Shown here one piece after another: positions 7,875 to 24,933 of a stretch of DNA of 24,933 nt. Position numbers and translations under genes: made by a program. Every line of letters begins with the position of its first letter. Positions within the stretch are counted from its first letter, which is position 1. The notes below the pieces were generated by a model. The model saw only the letters and a list, made by a program, of their open reading frames with translations, was not told where the DNA came from and ran no database searches. Source of the DNA: Chthoniobacteraceae bacterium (GTDB lineage: Bacteria; Verrucomicrobiota; Verrucomicrobiia; Chthoniobacterales; Chthoniobacteraceae); the NCBI GenBank assembly GCA_031409335.1, contig JANNWY010000204.1, positions 1 to 24,933 of the forward strand, written 5' to 3'.

Positions 7875-7906
7875 ATCGCGGATTGCGGATCGCGGATTGT
7901 GGATTG
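7875..7906. repeat. Degenerate heptamer tandem repeat (ATYGYGG x4.5), in frame within the PSD1 gene
   Basis: atcgcgg attgcgg atcgcgg attgtgg attg; encodes QSTIRDPQSAM. Confidence 0.7.
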
Positions 7907-8046
7907 AACGAAGTCGTCCACTTCCGCGATCGACGGCGGGACTCCCGTGAGGTCGAGCCACAGCCTGCGGATCAAGCGCGCGGGCTCTTCTGCGGGCGAA
8001 GGCTCGAGCTTTTCCTTTTCCAGCCGCGCGCGAACGAACGCATCAA

Positions 8047-8071
8047 TTCGATGTTCGATGTTCGATGTTCG
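8047..8071. repeat. Perfect heptamer tandem repeat (TTCGATG x3 + TTCG) at the frameshift
   Basis: ttcgatg ttcgatg ttcgatg ttcg; AACATCG x3 on the coding strand. Confidence 0.9.
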
Positions 8072-8643
8072 GCGGTTCCTCCGCCTTCACCGGCTGAAAC
8101 GCCCAGTGCCCCGTCCAGTTCGCGCCCTCCTTGATCCAGCGCCGCAGCAACTCCGCCTGCTCCGGCTTCAGTTTCTTGTGCTCCTTCGGCGGCGGCATCA
8201 CCTCGTCCTTATCGGTGGAAGCGATGCGCCGCAGCAGCTCGCTCTTTTCCAAATCGCCCGGCACGATCGCGATCTCGCCCGACTCCATTTTCCCAAACGC
8301 CGACTCCTTCTCGTCCAGCCGCAACCCAGCCTTGCGCTTGCCCGAGTCCGGCCCATGGCAGGCGAAGCAATGCTCGGAAAGCAGCGGGCGAATCTCGCGC
8401 GCAAAATCGACGCCAGCCGCGCTCGCGGCGAGTGGGAGGGCGATTGCGATGAGGAAAAGGCGGAAAGACTTCATATGTTGGCTGCGTGTTATGTCGGACG
8501 GCGCTGGAATCTTAGCACCTCCATCTTCCCATAGAGAAATTGCTTCGCGGCGGATTCGTGAATCTCGAAGACACCCACTGGCTCACCGGCGACGACGACG
8601 GCGGCGATGGCATCATCCCCATCACCGACCCCGCAAGAATGAA

Positions 8644-8764: not shown

Positions 8765-8890
8765 GTTAGTCGCGAATCCCAATGCCCGGCGTGGGATCGA
8801 TCTTGAACGACAATGGGGCACGAGCGCGGCGACGGTCGAGTCGGGCAGCGTCCGCTTGTCATCCGCACAGGGCTCGCGCTAGATACTTCG

Positions 8891-9646
8891 ATGTTCTCCC
8901 GTCTGCCCCGAAGGTTCACCGGCAGCACCGCCGTCCCGACGCTTTTGCATCTCACCCATGCCAAGGCGGGCTCCACTTGGATCACCGTCATCCTGCACGA
9001 GCGGTTCGGCGAAAACGTGGCGCCGCGCGGGAAACGCGCCGCGGAAACCAGCGGCGGCGATCTGGCGCAGCACGTTTTTGAAACGGGCCGCGTGTATCCG
9101 TCGATGTTCATGACGCGCGGCGAAGTGCTCGCGCATCCCGAGCTGAACGGCTGCAAACGTTTCGTCGTCATCCGCGATCTGCGCGACACGATGGCCGCGC
9201 TTTATTTCAGCCTCAGAATGTCCGCCAATTCCGACGCGGAATCGCGCACTGCCGCGCTGCCCGACGACGCTGAGTCCGCCCTGCTCGAAGTGATCGACTC
9301 GCGCGCCGCGGGCATCGCCGCGATCCAGACCTCGTGGCAAAATCAGGGCGAAATCGTGTTGCGTTACGAAGAGCTGATCGAGCATGGCGTCGATATTTTG
9401 CGCGACGCCTTCATCGGCCGGCTCGCGCTGCCGATCTCCGAAAGCGCGCTCGTGAAAGCTGTCCGCAACGCCCCATCCGAACGCGGACGCAGGACCGGCG
9501 CGGTCGATTGGCGGAAACATTTCACCCCAAAAGTGCGCGCGCGTTTTGCGGAAAAATTCGGCCAGGTGCTCATCGACACCGGCTACGAAAAGGACCCCGC
9601 TTGGGCGCGCGAGCCGTCCTCGACTCAATCGCCGGCGGGCCTGTAG
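8891..9646 (+). CDS. PAPS-dependent sulfotransferase domain protein
   Basis: 5'-PSB loop THAKAGSTWI, 3'-PB IRDLRDTMAALYFS, VLRYEEL, DWRKHFT. Start chosen at ATG 8891 (uncertain). Confidence 0.75.
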   Translation: MFSRLPRRFTGSTAVPTLLHLTHAKAGSTWITVILHERFGENVAPRGKRAAETSGGDLAQHVFETGRVYPSMFMTRGEVLAHPELNGCKRFVVIRDLRDTMAALYFSLRMSANSDAESRTAALPDDAESALLEVIDSRAAGIAAIQTSWQNQGEIVLRYEELIEHGVDILRDAFIGRLALPISESALVKAVRNAPSERGRRTGAVDWRKHFTPKVRARFAEKFGQVLIDTGYEKDPAWAREPSSTQSPAGL

Positions 9647-9660
9647 CTTCGCCGCGCCTG

Positions 9661-10620
9661 ATGATTTCCGTCACCGTCCCGATCTGCAACGAAGCCGGCA
9701 GCATTCGCGAACTCCACGAACGAGTCCGCGCCGCCCTCGTGGCCGTGAACCAGCCGTGGGAACTCGTGCTCGTGAACGACGGCTCGACCGACGGCTCCGA
9801 GGAGCTGCTCGATCAAATCGCCACCGAAGATCCGCGCGTGAAGGTCGTCCATTTCCGCCGCAATTTCGGCCAGACGGCCGCGATGATGGCCGGCTTCGAT
9901 TTCGCCCGCGGCGAGATCGTCATCCCGATGGATGGCGACCTGCAAAACGAGCCCGCCGACATCCCGCTGCTACTCGCGAAACTCAAGGAAGGCTACGATG
10001 TCGTGAGCGGCTGGCGCAAAGACCGGCAGGACAACGCGCTCCAGCGCAACCTCCCGAGCATCATGGCGAATCACCTCATCTCATTCGTCAGCGGCGTGCG
10101 GCTCCACGATTTCGGCTGCTCGCTGAAAGCGTACCGGCGCGAGGTCATCGAGGGCGTGCGGCTTTACGGCGAAATGCACCGCTTCCTCCCGATCTACGCC
10201 GGCTGGCACGGCGCGCGCATCACCGAAGTCGTCGTGCGCCACTACGCGCGGGCGAGCGGACGCTCGAAGTACGGCCTCGAGCGCGTGCTGAAAGTGCTCG
10301 CCGATCTCGTCACCGTGAAGTTCCTCGCGCGCTTCCAGCAAAAGCCGATGTACCTCTTCGGAGCCGTCGGCCTCGGCTCACTCGCGATCAGTTTCCTGAG
10401 CGGCAGCTACGCGCTGTGGCGGAAATTTGGCGAAGGCGAATCCTTCATCCGAAACCCCCTGCTCCTCACCGCGATCCTCACTGCGATGACCGGCCTCATG
10501 TGCATCCTCATGGGCCTGCTCGCGGAGATGATCGTGCGGACGTTTTACGAGTCGCAGGGGAAGCGCGTGTATCTCGTGCGCGCGACGCGGAACGTGGAAG
10601 AAATGACCAAGATCCAATGA
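9661..10620 (+). CDS. GT2 polyprenol-phosphate glycosyltransferase (ArnC/DPM1-like)
   Basis: MISVTVPICNE, VNDGSTDGS, RRNFGQTAA, MDGDLQNEP, DVVSGWR, LHDFGCSLKAYR, EMHRFLP, two C-terminal TM helices. Confidence 0.92.
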   Translation: MISVTVPICNEAGSIRELHERVRAALVAVNQPWELVLVNDGSTDGSEELLDQIATEDPRVKVVHFRRNFGQTAAMMAGFDFARGEIVIPMDGDLQNEPADIPLLLAKLKEGYDVVSGWRKDRQDNALQRNLPSIMANHLISFVSGVRLHDFGCSLKAYRREVIEGVRLYGEMHRFLPIYAGWHGARITEVVVRHYARASGRSKYGLERVLKVLADLVTVKFLARFQQKPMYLFGAVGLGSLAISFLSGSYALWRKFGEGESFIRNPLLLTAILTAMTGLMCILMGLLAEMIVRTFYESQGKRVYLVRATRNVEEMTKIQ

Positions 10621-10692
10621 CCAATGACCAAAGCCGGATGACACGCGCGGTCGCAGGGAATTGGTCATTGGTCATTGGCCATTGGTCATTTC
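10600..10692. repeat. Inverted heptamer arrays (ATGACCA / TGGTCAT) forming a 32-bp stem
   Basis: 10600-10631 GAAATGACCAAGATCCAATGACCAATGACCAA vs 10661-10692 TTGGTCATTGGTCATTGGCCATTGGTCATTTC, 3 mismatches, 29-nt loop. Confidence 0.85.
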
Positions 10693-10696
10693 AAAA

Positions 10697-12592
10697 ATGT
10701 GCGGAATAGCTGGCTTCACCGGACGCGGCGACCGCGCCGCGCTCCAGCGGATGACCGACGCCATCCGCCACCGCGGCCCGGATGCCGAGGGACATTGGGC
10801 GGATGAGCGCGCGGGCGTATTTCTCGGGCATCGACGTCTCTCGATCATCGACCTCGCGGGCGGCGCGCAGCCGATGTGGACCGCCGACGGAATGCTCGGC
10901 GTCACCTTCAACGGCGAAATTTACAACCACGCCGAACTCCGCGCCGAACTCGCGCAGCGCGGCTGCAAATTCGCGACCGATCACTCCGATACCGAAGTGC
11001 TGCTGCACGCCTATCGCGAATGGGGCGAAGGTTTCGTCGAGCGGCTCAACGGCATGTGGGCCTTCGTCATCTACGATCGGGAAAAGCGCCGCCTTTTCGG
11101 CAGTCGCGACCGCTTTGGAAAAAAGCCGCTCTACTACTTTCACGAAGGCGACACCTTCGGTTTCGCCAGCGAACTCCCCGCGCTCCTCCAGCACCCCGCC
11201 TGTCCCCGCAGCATCTCGCCGCTCGCGCTCAAAAAATATTTCGCCCACTGCTACATCCCCGCCCCGCGCTCGATTTATGAGCATGTGTGGAAGCTCCCCG
11301 GCGGCCACAATTTCACGTTCGATCTCACCAGCGGAAAGTTGAACGTGTCGCGCTGGTGGCAGTTCATTCTTGAACCGCAAGCATCAGCGGATGAGGAAAC
11401 TTTGTGTGAAGAAATTCGCGCCACGCTCGACCGCGCCGTCCAGCGCCGCCTCATGTCCGATGTTCCACTCGGTGTCTTCCTCAGCGGCGGCATCGACTCC
11501 TCCGCCATCGCCGCGCTTGCCGCGAAACACGTCCCCGCCGGACAACTCAACACCTTCAGCGTCGGCTTCAACGAACCCAGCTTCGACGAATCCAGCTACG
11601 CGCGCCTCGTCGCGGAAAAACTCGGCACCAATCACCGCGAGGAAATTCTCGACCTCGACAAATCGACCGCCCTCATCGCCGACATCGCCGCGCGCCTCGA
11701 CGAACCGCTCGGCGACGGCTCGCTGCTTCCCACTTTTCTCCTCAGCCGCTTCACCCGCCAGCACGTCACCGTCGCGCTCGGCGGCGACGGCGGCGACGAA
11801 CTCTTCGCCGGCTACGACCCTTTCCGCGCGCTGCGCAAAGCCGAGCTTTACGCAAAGCTCGTCCCCAAACCCATCCACGCCGGCATCCGCCACCTCGCCG
11901 CGCGCCTGCCCGTCTCGCACGAAAACATCAGCCTCGATTTCAAAATCAAACGCACCCTGATGGGCCTCAGCTATCCGCCGCCGCTCTGGAACGCCGTCTG
12001 GATGAGCGCCCTCGAACCGCGCGACATCGACCAGCTTTTCCACGAATCCACACCGATTGAAGACCTCTACAGCGAAGCCATCGAAGCCTGGGACCGCTGC
12101 GCCCAGCCGAACATCGTGGACCGCGCCCTGCAGTTCTGGACGAACCTTTATTTGCAAGACGGCATCCTCGCGAAAGTCGATCGCTCCAGCATGCTGAACT
12201 CCCTCGAAGCCCGCTCGCCCTTCCTCGACATCGAAGTCGTCGATCTAGCGCGCCGCATCCCCTGGCAGCTCAAACTCCGCGACGGCACAACAAAGTGGAT
12301 TCTTAAAAAAGCCCTCGCCCCGTTGCTTCCGAAGGAAATCATCGACCGCCCAAAAAAAGGCTTCGGCATGCCCATCGGCCGCTGGCTCACCGAAGGAAAA
12401 TTCGACATCGACCCCGCTCAAACCGCCCCGCTCCTTGATCCGAAATTCATCGCTCAAAAGTGGACCGAGCATCGTCAGCGCAAAGTGGATCACCGCCTTT
12501 TCCTCTGGAGCTACTGGTTATTTGCAAGGTGGCAGGAAGATCCGGGGAGCATACGCGTCCCGCGTGTTGATTTCGGCGTCCCACCCAAATGA
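10697..12592 (+). CDS. asnB: Asparagine synthase (glutamine-hydrolysing) family amidotransferase, glycan-cluster type
   Basis: N-terminal MCGIAG (Ntn Cys), HRGPD, HRRLSIID, FNGEIYN, RDRFGKKPL, LSGGIDSS, GDGGDELFAGY, EARSPFLD, RPKKGF. Confidence 0.95.
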   Translation: MCGIAGFTGRGDRAALQRMTDAIRHRGPDAEGHWADERAGVFLGHRRLSIIDLAGGAQPMWTADGMLGVTFNGEIYNHAELRAELAQRGCKFATDHSDTEVLLHAYREWGEGFVERLNGMWAFVIYDREKRRLFGSRDRFGKKPLYYFHEGDTFGFASELPALLQHPACPRSISPLALKKYFAHCYIPAPRSIYEHVWKLPGGHNFTFDLTSGKLNVSRWWQFILEPQASADEETLCEEIRATLDRAVQRRLMSDVPLGVFLSGGIDSSAIAALAAKHVPAGQLNTFSVGFNEPSFDESSYARLVAEKLGTNHREEILDLDKSTALIADIAARLDEPLGDGSLLPTFLLSRFTRQHVTVALGGDGGDELFAGYDPFRALRKAELYAKLVPKPIHAGIRHLAARLPVSHENISLDFKIKRTLMGLSYPPPLWNAVWMSALEPRDIDQLFHESTPIEDLYSEAIEAWDRCAQPNIVDRALQFWTNLYLQDGILAKVDRSSMLNSLEARSPFLDIEVVDLARRIPWQLKLRDGTTKWILKKALAPLLPKEIIDRPKKGFGMPIGRWLTEGKFDIDPAQTAPLLDPKFIAQKWTEHRQRKVDHRLFLWSYWLFARWQEDPGSIRVPRVDFGVPPK

Positions 12593-13304: not shown

Positions 13305-15845
13305 TTACCTAGACACACGTCCTGAACCTCGACGCGTTTCTGCGGCTGGCAGGGCCTTCTTTATCTCCGCGACTTGGGCGATGAGGCGCGCGGAGAGTTC
13401 GGGCTGCTCGGCGAGTTTGTCTTTGGTTTCGGAAAGGTCGGCGCTGAGGTGGTAGAGTGCGCGCGCGCCGGCGCTCCATTCGATGAGCTTCCAATCGCCG
13501 TCGATGAGCGCGATGTCGGCGGTGGCGATGGCGAAGGGCGCGCGCTTTTCAACGCGACCCGCGTGCAGCGCGGGCCAGACGTTGAGGCCGTCGAGTTTGG
13601 CGTCGCACTTCACTCCGGCGGCGGCGGCAAGCGTGGGGAAAAGATCCTGCACCGCGACGGGCTGCTGGCTCGCGGTGCCGGCGGGGATTTGGCCGGGCCA
13701 GCGAATGATGCACGGCGTGCGGATGCCGCCTTCGTAGAGCGTGTCCTTGCCCGCGCGGAGCGGGCCGTTGCTGCCGTTGCGGCGGGAGGCGCCGTTGTCG
13801 GAAAAGAAGAGGACGACCGTGTTGTCGCGGAGCTTCTGCTGGTCGAGTGCAGCGAGGATGCGGCCGATGGCGGTGTCCATGGCGTCGATCACCGCCGCGC
13901 CGGTGGCCTGTGCGCCGAGGCTTTTGTATTTCGTGAGAAATTCGTCCGGCGCGCTTTGTGGGACGTGCGGGGCGTTGAACGCGACCTGCATGAAGAACGG
14001 CTTCTTCGCGTCGCGTTTCTCGATCTGGCGGATGGCTTCGTCGGCGATGAGGAATGTGGAGTAGCCTTCTTCATTCACGGTGGTGCCGTCGCGCTGCCAG
14101 TCCACCGCGCCGCGCTGGTCGGTGTGTTTGAAATAGTCGATCTCGGGGCCGAGGAAGCCGTGGAAATGATCGAAGCCGAACTGCGTCGGCGTGCTCGCGC
14201 CTTTGCCGAGGTGCCATTTGCCGATGAGCGAGGTGGTGTAGCCGGCAGTGCGAAACGTCGCGGGCAGGGTGACGAGATCTTTCGGCAACTGCTGCTGCGG
14301 ACCCATCACGGCGGTCACGCCGAAGCGGCGCGGCATCTGCCCGGAGAGCAGCGCGGCGCGCGTGGGGCTGCACACGGGATAGACGTAGAAGCGCTGCAAC
14401 TCGGTGCCGTCTTACACGAGGCGGTCGAGGTTGGGCGTGAGCGCGTTGCCTTTGTGAAAAGCGACGTCGCCCCAGCCGAGGTCATCGGCGATGAGGATGA
14501 GGATGTTCGGCTTCGCGGAGGCCTCGCTGGCGGGCGGCGCGGAAGGCGCGGGCGCTCTTGCGGGCGGCGTGCTCCCCGTGGAAGGTGCCGCGCTTGGCCG
14601 GCCGCCACCGGGAGGCGCGGCGCGATACTCGTCGGGGGTCAGTTTCCCGTCGCCGTTTTTGTCCAGCGTCTTGAGCGAGGTCGCGGCCTGGGCGACTTCG
14701 TCCGCGTCGATCGCGCCGTCCTTGTTCGCGTCCAGCGCGGTGAGCACCGGCATGTTCGGCCCACCGCCACGGGGCGGTGCAGCGCCTGTCGGCGGGGGCG
14801 GATTCTGCGCTGAGCCCGGTCCGCCTTCGAGGATGCCGCGCGGTGCGCCGCCCAATGGTGCGGGCCGCAGGCCACCGCCCGGCCCGCCGCCGGGAGGACG
14901 GTCGCCTTTTGAAAAACTCTGGTCCGGCACCCCGCGCCACATGCGCGGCAGGAACGGGAACTCGGCGCTGATGCAGTAATAGTAAGTCCCGTCGGGAAAC
15001 TCCGGCGTCACGCCGGTGCGCCCGTTGCATTCGTCGAGGTCGCCAGCGTCCTTCACGAATTCAAAGTCCTGCGTGAAGCGCCCGTCGTAGTTTCCGCCCG
15101 GTCCGCCTTCCTGCGCCGGACGCGCGCCCGGCTTCAGCCGGTAGCTGGATTTCATTTTGCGCAGCGCGCTTTTCGCGTCCTTCGCCTCCGCGTGCGCCAT
15201 GCCGGTGTAGATCGGGAAACCGTCCGCCGCCCAGCCGACGAGCAGCATTTTCTTCCCGTCGCCGCCGAGACGTTCGACCAAGCCGGTCGGCAGCGCGTGG
15301 TAATGATATGAGCCATTCGGCTGCACATGCGCGTTGTGTTCATCGAGGCCGAGATTGAGGAAACCGGTCGCCGCCTCGTAGCGCCAGCCGGAGCGTGGAT
15401 CGTTGTTCCAGGTCTCGCCAGTGCCCGGCTCAAATGGCACGCCATTCAACGCCACGCCCCACCACCAGCCGCCACGACGCTCCGGCACCTCGGCGAGCTT
15501 CGGCTTCAACGGCACGCGGAAGGTGTAGCTTTGCGCCGTCGGCGTGTTCGGGTTTCCGCGTCGCGGAAAAGCGCCGGGCGCGTGATCCGGCCAGCCGTTC
15601 GCTTTGATCACGCGATCCTCGCCTTCGGTCGTGATGCTCACGGAATTCTCCACCTTCCCTATCGTCGCCGCCGGAGCTGCGGCACTCAGCGGAGCGCCTG
15701 CTTGCGCGAGGAAAAACGCGGGCGCATTCGCCGCACCTCCGTCTTCTTCGTGGCCAGGATGGGCCAGTGCCGAGACGGCGAGGAATGCGAGTGCGGCGCC
15801 GCCCGTGCGGAGCGCGGTGATCAGGGTGCGAGGATTTGCGTTCAT
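13305..15845 (-). pseudogene. Exported YHYH - EF-hand - arylsulfatase fusion interrupted by one in-frame TAA (14412-14414)
   Basis: Signal peptide from ATG 15845; YHYH domain (GLDEHNAHVQPNGSYHYH, GWAADGFPIY, LDECNG); EF-hands (LDANKDGAIDADE, LDKNGDGKLTPDE); KPNILILIADDLG...[32 protein letters not shown] in the same frame; GKWHLG, NAPH, SDNG, GKDTLYEGGIR. Confidence 0.88.
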
Positions 15846-15865
15846 GGCCGGCATCCTTCCACGCG

Positions 15866-15885
15866 AACCTTGAGCCATGATGAAG
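15866..15885 (-). promoter_or_regulatory. Putative regulator-binding motif, copy 1
   Basis: CTTCATCATGGCTCAAGGTT, 20 nt upstream of ATG 15845; 17/20 identical to 23247-23266. Confidence 0.7.
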
Positions 15886-15958
15886 ATCGGAACGTTGCGC
15901 GAAGGATGTTTCGCTCCGCGGCGCGCTCGATCCGATGCCTGCAGGACGGCAAAACATT

Positions 15959-17686
15959 TCATCGAGCAGGCGGCTGCGGAGGCGGACCAGGCCTGCTGCC
16001 ATCGTCGCGGCGCGGCGGACGCTGGCCGTCGTCCGGCGCGTTGCCGCTGCGGGTGTAAACGACATTCAGAGACGCACTCGCGAGCACCTTGTCTTTGATC
16101 GCCGCAAGCAGGACGTCGCGCGTCACTTCGCGCGGCGACTGCGCGATCTGAAGCGGTGAAGACAGCGCATAAACCGTGAGCACGTAAGTCTTCGCGCCGG
16201 GGCCTTTCGAGTGCGGCGGTGCGTAGCCTGGCTGGCCCTTGAAACTCGTGCCGACCTTGCCGACGCCGCGCGCGTTTTTCGGCAGGCTCGTCGTGCTCGC
16301 GGGGATGTCCCACATCGTCCAATACGACTTCACCACGTTGCCCGGCGCGAGATGATCCATGACCAGCGCGTAGCTCTGCGTGCCGGCGGGCGCGCCCTTC
16401 CACGCCAGCGGGAGCGTCGCGCCGCTGCCGTCGCCGGTGTAGTCCACGGGCAGTGTGCCACCGTCGGTCACTTCGGGGCTCGTGAGGACAAACGACGCGC
16501 TCGGTTTTTTCATCGCGTCCATCCCGATCACTGAGGCGCTCTCGCCGGCTCGCGGTTCGTCGCGCGGACCGTCGCGGCTCTCGCGCGGCGGCGGGCCACC
16601 ACGTTCACCGCCGCGCCGTTCACCCTCGGGACGCGGTCCGCCGCCGCCGCCTGGTCGCCGCGTGTAGGTTTCCTTCGCCGTTCCGTCGCGGCCGTTCTGG
16701 TATTCAAAAGGGAACGTCCCATCCGCGTTGACGCTGTAGAGGATGGCGCGCTTCTCCCCGTTCAGTTCGTAGCTGAGTTTGTAGCTCCCCGCGCCCGTGC
16801 TCTCGAACGCCGTGATCTTCGCCCCCCGCAACGGCGCGCCCGCTCCGCGCACGCCACCGCCCGCGCTCGGCTGCGGATCGACCTGCCCACCGGCCTCGGT
16901 GACCTCGCCGTGGAAGCCGCCGTTCACATACGGATACTTCGTCGTGGCATGGTAGTGATAGCCGGCCTTCGCGTCGTCGTGGCCATTGACGGCATCGAGC
17001 TTTCCGAGCGGCGAGCCATCGGGCTCCGTGAGCCCGAATATGGGAAAGCCATCGAGCGCATACGCGATCGGCAGTCCTTTCCCGACGAGCGCCTGCAAAT
17101 GCAGCGGCGCGGCGTGGTAGTGGTAATCATCTGCGCGCCCGCAGTGCCCGCCCCATTGATCCAGCTCGCCGATTTCCTGCGAGACTTCGCCGCGATTGTT
17201 CTGCGGATTAAAAATCGGGATGCCATTCACCGCCAGCGCGATGGCACCCCGGAGGAAGCGGTTCTTGATCGACGCCGGCTCCTTCGCCACGACCGGACGC
17301 AGCGGGATGCGCCATGCGTTTTCGCCAGAATAGGAGTGCGGCAGCGGCACCTGCCGCTGCCAGTTCGTGATCCCCACCATCATGTTGTGCGCGGGGATGC
17401 CGTTGCTTTCCACAAAGAGAAACCGCTCGTCCCAGCGAACCTTCACCGCGGGCGCGAACTTCCCGAACGCCGCCGCCTGCACCGGCTGGGTGGACGCCGC
17501 CGCCGCCGCCTCGATGGGCTGGGCCGGAAGCGCTCGCGAAGCCGCCTGCGCCTGCGCGAGGAAAAACTCCGGCGGCTTCACCGACCAATCGTAGTGCGCG
17601 TGTTCTTCGCCCGTCGCGGAATCGTGAGCGAAGCAGTTGCAGGCGAGCGAGAGGCCGAGGGCGGCGATGAGTGGCGATGTTTTCAT
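15959..17686 (-). CDS. Exported YHYH-domain protein fused to YbhB/YbcL (PEBP/RKIP-like) domain
   Basis: Signal peptide; NGIPIFNP, GELDQWGGHCGRADDYHYH, YALDGFPI, GYHYH; Gly/Pro/Arg linker; FVLTSPEVTDGGTLPVDYTGDG...PLAWKGAPAGTQSYALVMD...YAPPHSKGPGAKTYVLTVYAL. Confidence 0.88.
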   Translation of the reverse strand: MKTSPLIAALGLSLACNCFAHDSATGEEHAHYDWSVKPPEFFLAQAQAASRALPAQPIEAAAAASTQPVQAAAFGKFAPAVKVRWDERFLFVESNGIPAHNMMVGITNWQRQVPLPHSYSGENAWRIPLRPVVAKEPASIKNRFLRGAIALAVNGIPIFNPQNNRGEVSQEIGELDQWGGHCGRADDYHYHAAPLHLQALVGKGLPIAYALDGFPIFGLTEPDGSPLGKLDAVNGHDDAKAGYHYHATTKYPYVNGGFHGEVTEAGGQVDPQPSAGGGVRGAGAPLRGAKITAFESTGAGSYKLSYELNGEKRAILYSVNADGTFPFEYQNGRDGTAKETYTRRPGGGGGPRPEGERRGGERGGPPPRESRDGPRDEPRAGESASVIGMDAMKKPSASFVLTSPEVTDGGTLPVDYTGDGSGATLPLAWKGAPAGTQSYALVMDHLAPGNVVKSYWTMWDIPASTTSLPKNARGVGKVGTSFKGQPGYAPPHSKGPGAKTYVLTVYALSSPLQIAQSPREVTRDVLLAAIKDKVLASASLNVVYTRSGNAPDDGQRPPRRDDGSRPGPPPQPPAR

Positions 17687-17696
17687 GGGAGTTTTG

Positions 17697-20600
17697 TCAG
17701 CGCCTCACGCGGTAGAATCTGCGCGCCACGCCGGACGCGGTGGTGTCGGTCCATGTGTTTGTCTGGCCGACAGGGATGTCGGTCCAGTTCATCAAATCCT
17801 CCGACCACTGCACCGAGTAGCTGATGGTGCTCTGCGAGGGCCATGTGATCGTTACGTTGCCGCCGGAGCGCGCTGCGGCGGCGGCGAAGCTCGCGGGCGG
17901 GGTGACGGCGCTGACGGTGTAGGTGCCGCTCGCGCTCGAAGCGGTCGTGCCGCCGTTGCTGTCGGTCACGCTGAGGCTGTAGGTCACAGTCGTGCCGGCG
18001 GTCTGCACCGGGATCGCGGCGCCGAAGATTCCGTCGCCCGCGGCGCCGTCGCCGTGCAGGCCGTCGTCATACATGGTCACGCTGACAGGAGGTGCGCCGG
18101 TGGTCGTGCTGATGGTGATGTCGTCGAGGTAGGTCTTGGGTCCGGTTGGCCCTCCGACGTCGTTGCCGATGAATTGGAAACGCATCCGCAGCGTGCTCAC
18201 ACGATCGGTGGGTAGGAGGGTGTAGGTGTAAAGTTGGATGGCGTGATTGACGCCAGCCGGCTCACTGATGCGTGTGGTCCAATTCGTGCCCGCTGCATCC
18301 GTGGCGAGTTGGAAGTTCCAACCAAGACCTGCGGCAAGATTTGCGGTGCCGGCCCAGAACTGGACGGTGCCCGCAGTGCCGCTCGCGTTGATCGCGTTGG
18401 TCGTTTGAATCATCGTCGCGAGAGCGCTCGCAGTGCCTTTGTCGAACTGCACGCCGCAGATGTTCCCGGCACCGTGATTGGCGACGGCGAGTTGCTTGAT
18501 GTTGCCTGCGCCTCCGGTGCTGGTGACCGTCCATGGATACACTGCGCCGGCGCCATTCCAGCCACCGGTGGCTGTGGCTGTGTTGGACATTGTCTCGGCA
18601 AAGACGGTGCTCGTGGACTGTGTGCCGTCGCTGTAAGTGAGCTGCGCGTTGGTGATCGTCGCGCCGGATGCGGCGGCGAGCTGTGCGGTGACCCACACAT
18701 TGTCCACGTAGGTCGGCGTGTTCAACGACAGGCGCGTGTTCGTGATCGTCGGCGGCGGAATGACACCGGTGGCGCTCAGCGCAATGTCGAAGGCCGCGCC
18801 GACGGAAGGATCGCTGCTCGCGATGTGCAGCGCCGCGCTCTTCGCCCCGGCGCTGGCAGTGAACTGCACGACGAGCGATGTGCTCGCGCCCGCGGCGAGG
18901 CTGCTCGCGGGCGGCGTGGTGACAGTGAAGTTCGCCGCGTTCGTTCCATCGATCGTCCATCCCGTGATCGAGAGCGAAGTGTCGCCGTTGTTCGTAATCG
19001 TGAAGGCTTTCGAGGTGGTGCTGCCGACGTTCACATTTCCGTAGCCCACGGTGCTCACGCCATCGGTGAGCGCGTTCCCATTCTCCGACACGCCGATCTG
19101 CGTCGTCGTGGTGGGCGCGGTGCGCACGGCGAAGACCGGATATGTCGAGGCATACGGCTCGTAGCTCACGATGCCCTGCTGATTGCGCGACGGCGTGGAG
19201 GTCGTCGTCACGCCGAAGTCCACCAGCCACGCCTGCGTGGGCGTGCCCGACTTCACCGAGGTCGAGCTCCAGTAGGCCGTCGCCGTCGCCGCGGGGAAGA
19301 GCGTCCGATTCAGGTTCGGCGCGGTCGTGGTCGCCGAGGCCGTGGCGCGCGGGATGTCCTGGAGCGATTGCAGCTCCTTCACGTTCGGCAGCCGCCAGTC
19401 GCTGAAGCCGCCCGTCGTCAGCCCTTCCGCGTAGCTCAGCGCGCCCGTCCAGTTCACCGCGGACGAAGGGACCTGCGTCCACATGAGGCTCGTGTCGAGG
19501 TCGGTGATCGTGCCGTCGTTGTTGTTGAGATAATTGTGCCCGGTGGTCGGCTTCGCGCCGCGCACGTAGCGCGCGTGGAAGCGCAGCGCGCCGCCCGCGC
19601 TGAGCGTCGAGGTCTTCGGATGCGGCCCGATCCCGCCGCCGGTGTTCGTGGACCAGACCTTGGTGTTGTCGCCGTAGAAAAGATCGCTCGTCCAAAAGTA
19701 ACCCGGCGTGCCGCCCGCGTTGTTCACGAAGTAAGTGGGATTCAGCGCCGGATTGCGTTCGTGATCGAGGATGCTGAACGCCTCCTGCGCCGTCGGCAGC
19801 CGCCAGTCGGCGAAGCCCGCGAGATTCAGCGAAGTCGCGCCCGTGCGCGCCGTGTCCCACGTCATCTCGCCACTGTCCGTCTTCTGCCACATCAGGCCGG
19901 TCACGTTGTCCGTCACGGTGCCGTTGCCGTGGTCGGTGAAGCTCGGCGCATTGATCGTGTAATCGCTGTCTTCGCCGAAGGTCGCCGTGGCGTTGAGCGT
20001 CTGGCCGGTGTCGGGCAGCTTCGCCAGCGATGGGCCGGTCATCCGGTAGTAGTTGAAGCGCGACGTGCTCGTGTAAGTCGCGGGGGTGCCGGTGGGATTC
20101 GTCGGCGTCTGATGATTTACCGTCACCGTGTGCGCGATGCGATCGATCGAATAGGTCACCGTGTAAGTGGTGCCGCTCACCGTGTAAGTGAGCACATACG
20201 AATCGGGCGCTGGCCGCGCGAAGCCGGTGATGACCGCGCCCGCCAGCGGCGAACCCGCCGGCGCGATGGAACTCGCCGTCGGTTGCGGATCGATCTGCCC
20301 GCCGTAGTTCACCACCGTGCCGTGCATGGCATTCATCAGGTAAGGACTCTGCGGCCCCGACGCGACCGTGCCGCGCGCATGGTAGTGGTAACCCCAGCCG
20401 CCGTGATCGTGCCCGCCGTCCGCATCGAGCGGTTGCTGCGCGCTGCCGTCCGGTTCGAGGTAACCGTAGATCGGGTAACCATCCAGCGCCCACGCGCACG
20501 GCTTGTCCGGCGTGTGCACGGAATAGAGATGCGTCGGCGCGATGTGGTAGTGGTAATCGTCCGCGCGCCCGCAGTGCCCGCCGTAGGCATCCAGCTCGCC

Positions 20601-21362
20601 GATGGCCTGCGAAAACTGCCCCGTGTTATTCCGCGGGTTGAAGATCGGGATGCCATTCGCCGCGAGCGCCACCGCGCCGCGCAGAAAATTTCCCGTGAGC
20701 GAAATCGGCGACGCCGCCGGCACCGGCACGAGCGGAATCCGCCACACATTCGGCTGCCCATAGCCGAGTGAACCCGTGTCGCCCTCCGGGTTCGTGACAT
20801 TTCCAAAGTAGCCGACCGGAATCGGCAACTGCTGCTGCCACGCGGTGATGCCGACCATCGGATTCGGCATCAGCGTCGCGTCCGGCATCGAGTCGCCCTC
20901 GACGTAGAAGTAGGTCGCGTCGTTGTAAACGCGGACGCTCGGCTTGAAGGGCGAGAATGACGCGATCATCAGCGGCCCATTCCCCGGCGCGATCGCGTTC
21001 GTGAGCGGCGCGCCGAATCCGGTCGAAAGTGGGCTGAGTCCTGCATCCGCCCGTAGGAATGTCGGGTAGCGCCCTCGAGACGGCGACCACTGCCACGGCT
21101 GCGCAGGAGCGGGCCTTACCGCGCCGCGCGAGGGCGGCGTCTTGAACCAGCCCGGAGCACCCGGCCCGTTCGCTCGAGCCGGGAGCGACCGTTTCGATGC
21201 GCCCGTCTTGCCCTGATGCGACACGATGATCTGCGCACGCAACTCCTCGGTGAAGGCGTGGCCTTCACCCGCGTGCAGGTGAGAATCATGCGCCGAAGCA
21301 GCGAAGGTCGTGGCGAGGAACGCCAGGCCGAGCGCGATGCGATGTTCAAGACGGGGAACCAT
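17697..21362 (-). CDS. Large exported YHYH protein with two DUF1566 (Lcl-C) domains, Ig-like (choice-of-anchor D), jelly-roll-like insert, choice-of-anchor X and C-terminal 'RFYRV' domain (~1221 aa)
   Basis: Signal peptide from ATG 21362; GELDAYGGHCGRADDYHYH, WGYHYH; GNGTVTDNVTGLMWQ...DWRLPT and NDGTITDLDTSLMW...DWRLPNVKEL; FTITNNGDTSLSI; MYDDGLHGDGAAGDGIFG; YSVQWSEDLMNW...RRFYRVRR. Confidence 0.88.
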   Translation of the reverse strand: MVPRLEHRIALGLAFLATTFAASAHDSHLHAGEGHAFTEELRAQIIVSHQGKTGASKRSLPARANGPGAPGWFKTPPSRGAVRPAPAQPWQWSPSRGRYPTFLRADAGLSPLSTGFGAPLTNAIAPGNGPLMIASFSPFKPSVRVYNDATYFYVEGDSMPDATLMPNPMVGITAWQQQLPIPVGYFGNVTNPEGDTGSLGYGQPNVWRIPLVPVPAASPISLTGNFLRGAVALAANGIPIFNPRNNTGQFSQAIGELDAYGGHCGRADDYHYHIAPTHLYSVHTPDKPCAWALDGYPIYGYLEPDGSAQQPLDADGGHDHGGWGYHYHARGTVASGPQSPYLMNAMHGTVVNYGGQIDPQPTASSIAPAGSPLAGAVITGFARPAPDSYVLTYTVSGTTYTVTYSIDRIAHTVTVNHQTPTNPTGTPATYTSTSRFNYYRMTGPSLAKLPDTGQTLNATATFGEDSDYTINAPSFTDHGNGTVTDNVTGLMWQKTDSGEMTWDTARTGATSLNLAGFADWRLPTAQEAFSILDHERNPALNPTYFVNNAGGTPGYFWTSDLFYGDNTKVWSTNTGGGIGPHPKTSTLSAGGALRFHARYVRGAKPTTGHNYLNNNDGTITDLDTSLMWTQVPSSAVNWTGALSYAEGLTTGGFSDWRLPNVKELQSLQDIPRATASATTTAPNLNRTLFPAATATAYWSSTSVKSGTPTQAWLVDFGVTTTSTPSRNQQGIVSYEPYASTYPVFAVRTAPTTTTQIGVSENGNALTDGVSTVGYGNVNVGSTTSKAFTITNNGDTSLSITGWTIDGTNAANFTVTTPPASSLAAGASTSLVVQFTASAGAKSAALHIASSDPSVGAAFDIALSATGVIPPPTITNTRLSLNTPTYVDNVWVTAQLAAASGATITNAQLTYSDGTQSTSTVFAETMSNTATATGGWNGAGAVYPWTVTSTGGAGNIKQLAVANHGAGNICGVQFDKGTASALATMIQTTNAINASGTAGTVQFWAGTANLAAGLGWNFQLATDAAGTNWTTRISEPAGVNHAIQLYTYTLLPTDRVSTLRMRFQFIGNDVGGPTGPKTYLDDITISTTTGAPPVSVTMYDDGLHGDGAAGDGIFGAAIPVQTAGTTVTYSLSVTDSNGGTTASSASGTYTVSAVTPPASFAAAAARSGGNVTITWPSQSTISYSVQWSEDLMNWTDIPVGQTNTWTDTTASGVARRFYRVRR

Positions 21363-21372
21363 GCCGCCACAC

Positions 21373-21837
21373 TTACTTCTCGAGTTCGGGCCGCGCGAGC
21401 TTCGCTTCGGCGCCGGGAGCGCCTGGCCCGCCACCCGGTGGGCGGCCTTCACTACCTCCGCCCTGTCCGCCCGGACCTTGCCCGCGTCCGCCGGGGCCAG
21501 CGCCGGGGCCACCCTGGCTGCCGGGGCGCTGCGGGCGGAATTCGTCTTCGGTAAGTTTTCCGTCGCCGTTTTTGTCGAGCTTCTTGAGCGACTCGACGGC
21601 CTTGGCGAGTTCGTCGGCGTCGATGACGCCGTCCTTGTTCGCGTCGAGCGCCTCGATGATCGGGCTCGGCGGGCGTTGTCCACCGGAGCCGCCCGGACCT
21701 CCGGGACGGCCTTCGCCGCTGGCTGGACGTTGTCCGCCGCCGGGCGGGCCACCGACAGGCGGCTTGCCTTCCTGTGCGGTGATGAGGCTGCTGGATGCGC
21801 CGATGGCCAGCGCGAGGATGATGATTTGTTTTTTCAT
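21373..21837 (-). CDS. Exported EF-hand protein with Gly/Pro-rich arms
   Basis: Signal peptide MKKQIIILALAIGASSSLITA; LDANKDGVIDADE and LDKNGDGKLTEDE. Confidence 0.88.
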   Translation of the reverse strand: MKKQIIILALAIGASSSLITAQEGKPPVGGPPGGGQRPASGEGRPGGPGGSGGQRPPSPIIEALDANKDGVIDADELAKAVESLKKLDKNGDGKLTEDEFRPQRPGSQGGPGAGPGGRGQGPGGQGGGSEGRPPGGGPGAPGAEAKLARPELEK

Positions 21838-21849
21838 GGTGTGTTTTGG

Positions 21850-23226
21850 TTACTTGGTTTTTTCGGTGCCGGGAGACGGCGTTGATTCGATGCAGTAGAG
21901 CGCGCGATTGGAGCGCAGAATGAGTTGCCGGTCCGCGATGGCGGGCGTGGCGTTGAATTGCGAGTCGTCTCCCGCGATGCGGTTTTGCGCGACGAGTTTG
22001 AACTCGGGTTTCGCTTCAAAAACGAACGTCCCATTCTGCCGGCTGACGGCATGGACGCGGCCATCGGCGAGGACCGCGGAGGCATAGAAGGGCTTGCCGC
22101 CGCGGCCCGTCGCGCTCGCACCGGGCACGCGCTCTTTGTAGATCACGTTCCCCGATTTCGCGTCGAGGCAGGTGGCAAATCCGGCATCGCTCACGAAGTA
22201 GAGCCGCCCCTCGTGCAGCACCGGCGTCGGCACGTAGGTGCTGATGCTGCCGCTCCAGAGGATGTGCGTCTTGGTGACATCGCCCTTGCCGCCGGCGCGC
22301 ACGGCGATCGCGCCGAGCCGCGGAAATCCGCCGCAGACATACACCACGCCGTCGCCCGCGACGACGCTCGGCGCGACATTGCCCGTCAGCCCGGTTTCCA
22401 CAAACCAGCGGAGCTTGCCCGTGTCGGGATTGAGCCCCCACAGCTCGCCGGGAAGTGAGAAAACCAGATCGGTGCGACCTTCACTCTCCACCAGCACGGG
22501 CGTGCCGAAGCTATAGGTGAGACCCGCGCCCTCGGCCTTCCACGCGATTTTCCCGGTCTTCTTGTCGAGCGCGACCAGCGCGTGGCTCTCCTCGGAGGCG
22601 TTGATGATGACGAAGTCCTTGTAAAGAATCGGGCTGCCTCCGGAGCCCCAGCCCTTGCGATTGGAATCGGTGCCGAGGCTGGTCTGCCACAGCTTCGTGC
22701 CCGCGAGGTCGAAGGCCGCCGCGCCGCTCTTGCCAAAGAAGACATAGACGTGCTCGCCGTCGCTCGTCGGCGTGTGGCTCGCGTATCCGTGCTCGGTGAG
22801 AAAGCCGCCGAAGCTATCCTCCGGCTGCACCGCCGGCACTGCGGTGGACCAAGCGATCTTTCCATCCGCGCGATTCACGCAGACGAGGTGGCGCTGCAGT
22901 TTCTGCATGTCGCCGCTGCCGCGCTCGTCGCCGTAGCCCGAGTAGCAGGTGACGAAAACGCGGTCGCCCACGACGATCGGGCTGCTCGTGCCGGGGCCGG
23001 GCAGTTCCGCTTTCCAGCGCACATTCTGCGACTCGCTCCAGGTCACCGGAGGCTTCGCCTCAGCCGCGATGCCGGAGCCATTCGGCCCGCGAAAGCGCGC
23101 CCAGTCCGCCGCCGAGGCAATGTTCAATGCGAGAAGACTCGCGGCTGTTGCAGCCAGCACTAGACCGCGCTCGAACATTCGCGGGCGGCGGATCGCTGCG
23201 TGGATTCGATGCGGAGCGTGTTTCAT
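21850..23226 (-). CDS. Exported PQQ-like beta-propeller protein (BamB-like, PVC type)
   Basis: ADWARFRGPNGSG, WKAELPGPGTSSPIV, repeated ALDKKTGKIAW / GLNPDTGKLRW blades, FNATPA. Start 23226 is supported by motif spacing. Confidence 0.88.
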   Translation of the reverse strand: MKHAPHRIHAAIRRPRMFERGLVLAATAASLLALNIASAADWARFRGPNGSGIAAEAKPPVTWSESQNVRWKAELPGPGTSSPIVVGDRVFVTCYSGYGDERGSGDMQKLQRHLVCVNRADGKIAWSTAVPAVQPEDSFGGFLTEHGYASHTPTSDGEHVYVFFGKSGAAAFDLAGTKLWQTSLGTDSNRKGWGSGGSPILYKDFVIINASEESHALVALDKKTGKIAWKAEGAGLTYSFGTPVLVESEGRTDLVFSLPGELWGLNPDTGKLRWFVETGLTGNVAPSVVAGDGVVYVCGGFPRLGAIAVRAGGKGDVTKTHILWSGSISTYVPTPVLHEGRLYFVSDAGFATCLDAKSGNVIYKERVPGASATGRGGKPFYASAVLADGRVHAVSRQNGTFVFEAKPEFKLVAQNRIAGDDSQFNATPAIADRQLILRSNRALYCIESTPSPGTEKTK

Positions 23227-23246
23227 CGCTCCAATCATCCCACCTC

Positions 23247-23266
23247 AACCTTGAGTTGTGATGAAG
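23247..23266 (-). promoter_or_regulatory. Putative regulator-binding motif, copy 2
   Basis: CTTCATCACAACTCAAGGTT, 20 nt upstream of ATG 23226. Confidence 0.7.
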
Positions 23267-23309
23267 GGTGTCGCCATTTTTCAACTCGATGAGATCGAAG
23301 ACGACTGGA

Positions 23310-24932
23310 TCACTCGCTGGTCAGCGTTTTGAGGAAAGCGACCAGCGCGCGCTGGTCGGCTTCGCTGAGTTGCAGGCCGCCTTCGGGATGCTTGGCGAGA
23401 TTCGGATCGAGCGTGGGGCTGCGGTGGATGCCGGTGCTGTAGTGGGCGACGACTTCCTCCATCGTGGCAAAGCGGCCGTCGTGCATGTAGGGCGCGGTGC
23501 GCGCGACGTTGCGCAGGCTGGGCGTGGCGAACTTGTCGCGGTCGGCTTCGAGCTTCGTGGTGCGGAATCGGCCGGGGTCGTCGGCGCTCGGCGCGAGGCC
23601 GTTGTTGTGAAACTGGTGGTCGCTAAAGAGCGGGCCGCCGTGGCAGTGGAAGCAATCCGCGCCGAGTTGTCCGGTGCGCTGGTCGCGCTCCGTCATGAAC
23701 AACTCGAAGCCCCGCGTTTCGTCGTCACTCAGCGTGGCCTTTCCGCGCAGGGCGCGGTCGAACTTTGCGTCGTAGGACGTGAGGGTGAGGAGAAACTGTT
23801 CGAGCGCCAGCCCGAGCTTTTCCGCGGTGATTTCCGGCGAGCCGAAGGCGGCGGTGAAGAGCGCGGGATACTCTTTCGTGGCGGCGAGCTTGGCGGTGAC
23901 GCGGTCGAGTGTTTCATCCAACTCGGTGTGATCCTCGATGGGCATGAGCGCCTGCGCGCGAAGCGACGGCGCGCGGCCATCCCAGAAGAAGCTCGTCTTC
24001 CACGCGAGGTTGAAAAGCGGCATGGAGTTGCGCGCGCCTTTCTGACCGCGCACGCCGAGGCTGAAGCGGCGTGCGTCCGCAAACGCGAACGTCGAGACGT
24101 GGCAGGCGGCGCACGAGAGCGTGCCGTCGCGCGAGAGCGCGGCTTCGTTGAAGAGCGCCTTGCCGAGCGCGATGCGTTCCTCGATGAGCGGATTGTCGCG
24201 TGGCAGATCGGGCACGGGAAAAGTGCCGCTCATCGTAAAGCGATAGGGTGTGAATTTCTCGGGCAGATAGAGCGGCTTCACCGGCGCGGGTTTGCTGATC
24301 GCAGGTGCGGCGGAGAGGACCTGCGTCACGCGGAATGCGCCGGGGAGATTAGCGACGAGCGCGGCGGCGACGGGATCGCCGTCGCGCGAGTGCGTGGCGG
24401 CGCCGTCCTTTTCAAACGAGAGCGGACGCGGCGCGTTGAGCAGCGTGCCGAGATCGAAGTCGAGCAGCACCGCGGCGTCGTGCGTGAGGTCGAGCGGCGC
24501 GGCGAGGCTGATGCGGGTGCGGTTCGGATCGCGCGCGAGATGGTGCGCGTAGCCTTTCAGCTTCGCCGCGCCGACCCGGTAGTGGCCCTCGACGGCGAGG
24601 AAGATGTAGCCCGTCTGCCAGCTCCAGTGCAGCCCGTTGAGGTTGGGATTCAGCGGATGATCGGCGGCCAGCTTCGCCGGGTCCGCGGTGTTCGCCTTCG
24701 CATCCGGGCCGAGGTGGAATCGCAGCGCGCGATATTTTCCCTCCGGCACTCCTTCGAGACGGACCACCGTGCGCCGTTTCGCCGCATCCATCCACGCGTA
24801 ACGATCCGGCACATCCACCCACACGCCATCCTCACGCTCGACGGCAAACCCGCTCAGCAAATAACTGAGCCGCGTGGCCGACAGCGTTTCGCCCGCGGCA
24901 TTCTGGTAGCGCAGCGAGTCGAGCAGGAGCGG
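23310..24932 (-). CDS. MbnP-family domain fused to MbnH/MauG-type di-heme cytochrome c peroxidase (5' end outside window)
   Basis: The frame is open to the window edge (PLLLDSLRYQNAAGETLSATRLSYLLSGF). MbnP-like region: RFHLG..ANTADP...HPL...LHWSWQTGYIF. Then LGKALF...LSRDGTLSCAACH, RNSMPLFN, FWDGRA, CFHCH, FHNNGL, FATPSLRNVARTAPYMHDGRF. Confidence 0.85.
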   Translation of the reverse strand, partial: PLLLDSLRYQNAAGETLSATRLSYLLSGFAVEREDGVWVDVPDRYAWMDAAKRRTVVRLEGVPEGKYRALRFHLGPDAKANTADPAKLAADHPLNPNLNGLHWSWQTGYIFLAVEGHYRVGAAKLKGYAHHLARDPNRTRISLAAPLDLTHDAAVLLDFDLGTLLNAPRPLSFEKDGAATHSRDGDPVAAALVANLPGAFRVTQVLSAAPAISKPAPVKPLYLPEKFTPYRFTMSGTFPVPDLPRDNPLIEERIALGKALFNEAALSRDGTLSCAACHVSTFAFADARRFSLGVRGQKGARNSMPLFNLAWKTSFFWDGRAPSLRAQALMPIEDHTELDETLDRVTAKLAATKEYPALFTAAFGSPEITAEKLGLALEQFLLTLTSYDAKFDRALRGKATLSDDETRGFELFMTERDQRTGQLGADCFHCHGGPLFSDHQFHNNGLAPSADDPGRFRTTKLEADRDKFATPSLRNVARTAPYMHDGRFATMEEVVAHYSTGIHRSPTLDPNLAKHPEGGLQLSEADQRALVAFLKTLTSE

Positions 24933-24933
24933 G

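Follow-up and report, generated by a model that had tools for sequence, protein, structure and literature searches.

What does a fused MbnP-MbnH protein serve in a place where methanobactin genes are absent, and are the YHYH proteins encoded beside it its partners? This question is raised by a 24,933-nt stretch (hereafter the window, which is the whole of contig C204 of the Chthoniobacteraceae genome G000, 7.9 Mb in 326 contigs) that carries six minus-strand genes, g1 to g6, encoding the fusion (MbnPH, the product of g1) together with three YHYH proteins (g4 to g6). A sequence-only reading of this DNA had proposed that MbnPH supplies or matures all three with a metal, probably copper. Our study argues that the coupled partner of g1 is instead a pair of long-insert (L) YHYH genes lying upstream on contig C56, because the association with MbnP is specific to this type, and that g4 to g6, two short (S) and one canonical (C), are probably not MbnPH clients. 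This coupling is a real and conserved variant of MbnPH biology that was not previously described; a literature search that left most subscription papers and all supplements outside its scope turned up no paper that connects MbnPH with YHYH or with a copper-radical oxidase.

The three YHYH domains of the window all exceed the PF14240 cut-off of 25 bits (37, 47.5 and 228 bits), and they belong to different subtypes, since the profile is matched over positions 2-109 in g4 and g5 and over positions 1-193 in g6. Altogether, the family falls into three clades, short S (g4, g5), canonical C (g6) and long-insert L (the genes on C56 and on contig C302 of the same genome), each separated from the rest by a branch of support 97 to 100, values that come from a quick IQ-TREE run only and from 68 of the rows. 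A D-x4-H...[YF]HxH core is common to all three types; its Asp and three His are described in the available part of PMC7824862, and a Zn site is predicted for them there and in the available part of bioRxiv 10.64898/2026.10.18.759936.

The sequence-only reading expected MbnPH to be enriched near YHYH genes, and the neighborhood analysis agreed. In 300 genomes of the class Verrucomicrobiia, at least 90% complete, MbnP was found in 34, all of them among the 68 YHYH carriers. Split by type, MbnP was present in 31/33 L carriers versus 3/35 non-L YHYH carriers, and genes within 6 kb of MbnP were 30/42 for L, 4/42 for C and 0/41 for the short type, types being assigned here by profile span and not by tree, so that "short" includes non-S short matches. 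These counts leave aside all rows of G000 itself, genome G510 (below the cut-off), the second and third fragments of G335, G349, G457 and G513, and the MbnP fragments G334:C190 and G474:C3:86358. A set of sixty relatives gave the same picture, with MbnP in 11/13 L carriers versus 1/8 other YHYH carriers, the two L carriers without MbnP being 67% and 71% complete, and 150 genomes of the phylum agree (4/4). Seen from the other side, 47 of the 80 best MbnPH loci hold a YHYH gene, within 500 nt at 42 of them, and the YHYH frames at these 80 loci are, by architecture, 55 L, 5 C and 3 S. Of 80 metagenome loci collected around S-type genes, only 2 hold MbnP, both with an L gene alongside. Thus, the claim that MbnPH serves the three YHYH proteins of the window was not supported.

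The three types also differ in the number and setting of their sites. Two complete sites occur in 81/85 S-type sequences and one in 18/18 C-type sequences, and the core pattern was found once in 44/54 L-type sequences. In a 44-row alignment of L sequences, D173, H178, H187 and H189 are invariant, as are a fourth His (H225), a lone Cys (C357) and W7, W32, W160, W231 and W284. Structure prediction of the His clusters, as suggested earlier, gave models without a parallel fold: the AlphaFold models reached a predicted local distance difference test (pLDDT) score of 90 for the S domain and 74 for the L domain, and the top hits of the fold searches had Z 7.4 for S, across 60 residues that belong mainly to the C-terminal meander, and Z 3.9 for L. 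These searches gave no convincing solved-fold match for the YHYH core, which shows neither novelty nor absence. A sequence search of the PDB with the S alignment returned PEBP structures only, and an ESM Atlas search yielded nothing beyond YHYH clusters or a single weak match without a name. The mature chains of g4, g5 and g6 would each start with His, and in 83/117 S-type homologues a His immediately follows an AxA-type cleavage motif; this may be an additional metal site.

The fusion itself, g1 (23310..24933, 5' end open in the window), was identified by profile search as an MbnP domain (PF20243, 95.5 bits, cut-off 27) followed by a CCP_MauG domain (170.5 bits). It carries an HWxW motif (HWSW) at 24618-24629 and two CxxCH motifs at 24099-24113 and 23640-23654. 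Its WxW aligns to the WNW of 7L6G, with W103 and W105 invariant in 71/71 fusions; H102 and H131 of the MbnP domain are invariant, H181 is near-invariant and the Met before WxW is missing. The di-heme domain finds its best solved-structure match in 6E1C (E 1.2e-60), listed as "Di-heme enzyme" and which we take to be MbnH, and at most MbnPH loci it retains FWDGR and PY[MF]HDG, whose roles we assume from MauG. The MauG cut-off is not reached (TIGR03791, 211.1 versus 443.85). Some MbnPH frames carry long N-terminal extensions; these are stop-to-stop artifacts rather than fusions and were discarded. As noted from the sequence alone, no methanobactin genes lie at the locus; the sole MbnB-family match in the genome is a single gene of the MbnB/TglH/ChrH family (PF05114) on contig C12 (35761-36543; L203), unlinked to MbnPH. 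According to the accessible parts of the respective papers, MbnP/MbnH pairs are also found outside methanobactin operons (PMC3621798), MbnPH has been implicated in copper release or uptake (PMC13729199), and the MbnP system contains a kynurenine-copper site (PMC11951088).

Which genes, then, occupy the slot next to MbnPH where no YHYH gene does? Fourteen MbnP genes of the class sample have no YHYH within 6 kb; 7 of them, including those of all three non-L genomes, directly precede a galactose-oxidase-like gene, and one adjoins CusB-CusA-YHYH(L)/multicopper oxidase. The same arrangement is seen at loci L197 and L202 and in G000 itself, where an MbnPH paralogue on contig C144 (L012:9405-17047) is followed by a 2,046-amino-acid galactose-oxidase-like protein that includes a cytochrome c module of its own. 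The partners at C144, L197 and L202 have intact Cys/Tyr/Tyr-His/His motifs, to which we presumptively assign the roles they have in galactose oxidase; the C144 partner scores 159.5 bits against the GlxA model NF052501, under its cut-off of 800. Moreover, YHYH-L is fused to a CueO-like multicopper oxidase in 3/80 loci. Where the neighbor of MbnPH is not YHYH-L, it is a recognizable copper enzyme, and YHYH-L is therefore itself likely to be a cuproenzyme.

The predicted gene content and orientation of the cluster were borne out by the translated frames and profile searches. The end of the window overlaps the start of C56 exactly over 118 nt, and C56 supplies the 5' end of g1 with a signal-like leader (C56:1-237), two minus-strand YHYH genes of the L type (C56:240-1802 and C56:1784-3436), which bring the YHYH genes of the extended locus to five (three in the window, two on C56), and, divergent from these on the plus strand, an OmpR-type response regulator with its kinase (C56:3377-5550), two-component genes that the sequence-only reading had suggested looking for upstream. 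Downstream of g1, g2 (21850..23226, alternative start 23238) encodes a secreted PQQ_2-type beta-propeller, whose like is present in the related clusters L018, L112, L189, L190 and L229, and g3 (21373..21837) a Gly/Pro-rich secreted protein with two EF-hands. The next two genes encode the S-type proteins, each with two D-x4-H...HxH sites: g4 (17697..21362; sites at 20544-20591 and 20379-20426) joins YHYH to two Lcl_C/DUF1566 domains and choice-of-anchor D and X, and g5 (15959..17686; sites at 17114-17161 and 16949-16996) joins it to a PEBP domain (YbhB/YbcL-like). Last comes g6 (14412..15845), a C-type YHYH protein with a single site at 15297-15344, two EF-hands and a sulfatase stub. The gaps within g2-g5 measure 12, 10 and 10 nt, as first reported, compared with 71 nt between g1 and g2 (83 nt from the second ATG of g2) and 113 nt between g5 and g6. 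The signal peptides claimed for g2-g6 are reflected in hydrophobic N-termini (best 10-residue Kyte-Doolittle mean 2.1-3.1, by a hydropathy check with no signal-peptide predictor), and the leader of g1, invisible in the window, is the one found on C56.

Two further MbnPH fusions occur in G000: on C302 the fusion immediately follows a YHYH gene, and the copy on C144 is the oxidase-linked one. The nearest named relatives are in Chthoniobacteraceae and other Verrucomicrobiota; the same-genus genome G154 retains the order MbnPH-PQQ-EF-YHYH(C), and locus L112 holds the other five gene types. Chthoniobacter flavus (L025) likewise has YHYH-L together with MbnPH. The sequencing runs that best cover the locus are freshwater sediment metagenomes, with no RNA run among the matches listed. 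L-type genes interrupted by stops were seen at G000:C76:1353-2012 (L005) and L016:16179-17849. A similar W...RFYRV-type tail, possibly a Verrucomicrobial surface-sorting signal, is present at the C terminus of g4 (17697-17830) and at those of the YHYH-L proteins of C56 and C302.

Co-regulation of the cluster, also proposed earlier, is likely in view of a shared sequence element, CTTCAT-N5-STYAAGGT, that precedes g2 (23247..23266, minus strand, 20 nt ahead of the ATG at 23226 and likely an internal promoter for g2-g5), g6 (15866..15885, minus strand, 20 nt ahead of its ATG), the upstream C56 YHYH gene and the regulator, i.e., three transcription units and the regulator. Because the motif was derived from three of the locus's own sites, finding it here is by construction. 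A weight matrix built from 25 sites of other genomes nevertheless ranks the sites of the locus 1st to 4th of the 14 above threshold in G000, the fourth (before the regulator) tying with an unassigned site on C26, and at the loci of other genomes 22/25 matches lie at most 600 nt before a system gene. Scanning 121 genomes of the family gave 30 matches versus 3 with the reversed control; of the 26 outside G000, 19 stand ahead of a system gene (the regulator in 9 cases, a YHYH gene in 6, with every type represented, a sulfatase in 3 and the propeller in 1). Two others lie before an unnamed secreted protein, and 5 remained unassigned. The box mostly stands 20 to 30 nt ahead of the start codon. The unnamed regulon members, at L209 and L226, are Pro-rich secreted proteins related to each other; no Pfam family matches them, and the box lies 22 nt ahead. 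A palindrome, CCTTNA-N8-TNAAGG, had been considered as the box; being off by one base, it gave no useful matches, and the direct repeat was adopted. The box may be a CopR-type TTTCAT repeat, an idea for which no supporting paper was found, and we infer that the C56 regulator binds the box.

The last gene only partly matches what was read from the sequence alone: YHYH and EF-hand are present, and the sulfatase is cut by an in-frame TAA (14412-14414) about 30 residues into its domain and ahead of CSPTR (14358-14372), so that the g6 product is a 477-amino-acid YHYH and EF-hand protein, the sulfatase remainder is orphaned behind the stop (13305..14411, minus strand), and CxPxR does not stand within an intact single-frame sulfatase domain. 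Contigs from two runs, X1 and X2, cover 13720-15126 with 0 differences from the window, making a simple assembly slip unlikely, with the proviso that both runs belong to one study and that X1 may be the source of the assembly. L112 and L165 encode unbroken YHYH-EF-sulfatase fusions, and at six relative loci the YHYH(C)-EF protein has no sulfatase and a length of 440-576 amino acids; in its truncated form, g6 thus resembles a layout that is common. A role of YHYH in maturing sulfatases was also considered and set aside. The swapping of cargo among YHYH proteins, another early suggestion, is indeed seen across related loci. YHYH, PEBP, PEBP and YHYH stand as separate genes on a plasmid of the alphaproteobacterium Loktanella (NZ_CP072995.1, L188), a PEBP link that crosses phyla, and YHYH adjoins HupE/UreJ on a Deinococcus plasmid (NZ_CP092194.1, L184); no MbnPH was seen in the plasmid YHYH regions, 5 of 11 being examined.

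Elsewhere in the window, sulfotransferase-like, GT2 glycosyltransferase and asparagine-synthase-like genes unrelated to this cluster lie at 8813-12592 (plus strand), and a Planctomycete cytochrome c/DUF1549/DUF1553 gene at 5345-8474 (minus strand) is apparently split in two frames (8043-8474 and 5345-7975). The low-GC contig start (184-3792, 0.45-0.56) encodes a protein with caspase, peptidoglycan-binding and FGE-like parts and a Phd/PIN pair, the PIN gene of which continues into a HisKA fragment on the opposite strand; this may be a junction of mobile or chimeric origin.

We propose a model, held tentatively and at a little under an even chance, in which MbnPH loads copper onto YHYH-L and the other YHYH proteins are independent metal hydrolases. 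The cluster of exported proteins would likely be switched on jointly by the divergent OmpR-type regulator. By analogy with the Methylosinus MbnPH, the MbnH domain, using peroxide, would convert the WxW tryptophan in the MbnP domain of the same protein into kynurenine by oxidation, and the fusion would thereby build its own tryptophan-derived copper site. Either the Cu-MbnP domain would then load, or the di-heme domain would activate, the enzyme encoded alongside; at most loci this is YHYH-L, and one branch has a galactose-oxidase-like enzyme there. YHYH-L would be a copper enzyme at its D-x4-H...HxH site; the S and C types would bind Zn or some other divalent metal at this site and work together with sulfatases on the cell surface, those of the window sharing only the regulon and being MbnPH-independent metal hydrolases, as predicted for the family. 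A more doubtful extension would make YHYH-L a new class of exported copper enzyme with an unsolved fold and the fusion a general one-protein maturase that both loads copper into and activates its targets, serving as such for exported cuproenzymes (YHYH-L, copper-radical oxidase), in which MbnH may install a Trp-derived cofactor in YHYH-L and the S and C clades kept or took another metal.

Several observations weigh against the copper-loading model. The genome samples overlap and their members are kin, so that P-values overstate, and 33/80 MbnPH loci have no YHYH in their flank, including 18/55 with at least 3 kb on both sides; searching these YHYH-less loci with an L profile recovered no missed YHYH, and no oxidase-like gene is labeled in that well-flanked set. 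Oxidase linkage counts as about one evolutionary event, because the oxidase-linked fusions fall almost entirely on one branch (2 changes, on a tree that kept the rows passing a motif filter, 7/10 oxidase-linked, 29/32 YHYH-linked and 20/22 others). The likeness of the fusion to its namesakes is also limited: it falls under the NCBIfam cut-offs for MbnP (TIGR04052, 30.6 versus 140, scored on the 5'-truncated fusion) and MbnH (TIGR04039, 217.7 versus 362.85), it matches 7L6G only at E 0.36, and Leu-His stands before WxW where 7L6G has Met-Ala. On the regulatory side, the box is missing at the MbnPH copies on C302 and C144, and the kinase, whose best NCBIfam match is the heavy-metal sensor family, stays under the cut-off of that model (TIGR01386, 267.2 versus 292.55) and of TIGR01387 (197.3 versus 279.2), its sensor domain having no conserved His, Met or Cys in a 17-row alignment. 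Sulfatase genes were found at 41 of the 80 S-side loci (43 with a second query), alongside a regulator at 24 and a kinase at 22, sulfatases being common in this phylum. Finally, L keeps the same Asp and three His motif as C, which the available parts of the two sources cited above read as a Zn site.

This last point is the starting place of an alternative that we regard as unlikely, in which all YHYH types are Zn-type hydrolases and MbnPH accompanies L as a general means of buffering or detoxifying copper (with CusAB and multicopper oxidase), shielding exposed His sites without any hand-over. The D-x4-H...HxH core is identical across types, sulfatase fusions and neighbors are found for L too, and CusA/CzcA-type genes lie near 6/80 MbnPH loci (a seventh listing being a short opposite-strand match) and CusB near 5/80; what it leaves unexplained is that one clade alone keeps MbnPH adjacent (30/42 versus 4/83) and that a copper-radical oxidase directly follows MbnPH elsewhere. 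An extension of the sequence-only reading would make copper enzymes or copper sponges of the five YHYH proteins, within a copper-induced regulon that MbnPH supplies; this would fit the single box covering all three types, the heavy-metal sensor match of the kinase, the His after the cleavage motif in S-type homologues and the HupE/UreJ neighbor in Deinococcus. It is rather improbable, as S and C are mostly found in genomes and loci without MbnPH and the sensor domain has no conserved metal-ligand residues; copper for g4-g6, as the sequence-only reading had it, received no direct support.

We likewise judge it decidedly improbable that MbnH acts as a MauG-like maturase of YHYH-L, oxidizing one of its invariant Trp residues into a protein-derived cofactor. 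The five Trp, H225 and C357 conserved in 44/44 L rows, the retained di-heme motifs, whose roles are assumed, and the strict L-specific coupling with MbnPH are what such a maturase would predict, but a WxW substrate is already present within the fusion, identity to the first of the 44 rows ranges over 42-86%, which means that the invariant Trp may be structural, and W231 lies within a motif common to the C type. Chance co-location or a mis-assembled patchwork, which could be suspected from a genome in 326 contigs, from the broken g6 and C76 paralogue and from the fact that no listed read contig covers the full stretch, is scarcely credible: it is largely refuted by the gene order kept in G154, the other five gene types in L112, the recurrence of the box and the association of MbnP with L in the class sample. 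Copper loading of YHYH-L by MbnPH thus remains our preferred, if tentative, reading.

Two questions become jointly testable in this locus, the role of orphan MbnPH pairs without methanobactin and the function of the widespread YHYH family. The split into subtypes points to L as the YHYH partner for MbnPH and provides S and C as built-in negative controls from the same locus, the oxidase-linked MbnPH paralogue of the same genome is a positive control with a standard assay, and the box can serve as a reporter for locating the inducing signal.

Compared with known systems, the fusion resembles MbnP and MbnH of Methylosinus trichosporium OB3b (7L6G and 6E1C) in its PF20243 domain with WxW, its di-heme CcP/MauG domain and its export. 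It differs in being one polypeptide, in an MbnP domain without Cys (7L6G is named a four-Cys motif protein), in the His standing in place of Met-Ala before WxW, in the absence of methanobactin genes or a TonB receptor at the locus, and in its partners, YHYH-L or a copper-radical oxidase. The divergent regulator and kinase and the 11-bp-period direct-repeat-like box, also ahead of the regulator, recall the OmpR-type metal regulons CusRS and CzcRS, and the boxes of PmrAB, QseBC and BqsRS offer a comparison for the repeat; the sensor domain of CusS has conserved His and Met, whereas that of the present kinase, under both heavy-metal cut-offs, has not. As for YHYH itself, the window domains pass the Pfam cut-off and share the Asp and three His core of PMC7824862, as far as its available part goes, whereas the three clades differ here in their partners, and phage versions are tail-linked, while the YHYH proteins of this locus are regulated cell-envelope proteins. 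A functional parallel may be the Sco/ECuC/DtpA-GlxA system of Streptomyces, in which, in the accessible part of PMC4736821, a heme peroxidase and a copper chaperone serve the maturation of an exported copper-radical oxidase; the peroxidase and chaperone folds are unrelated to those of MbnPH, which would join both functions in one protein encoded mostly beside YHYH-L.

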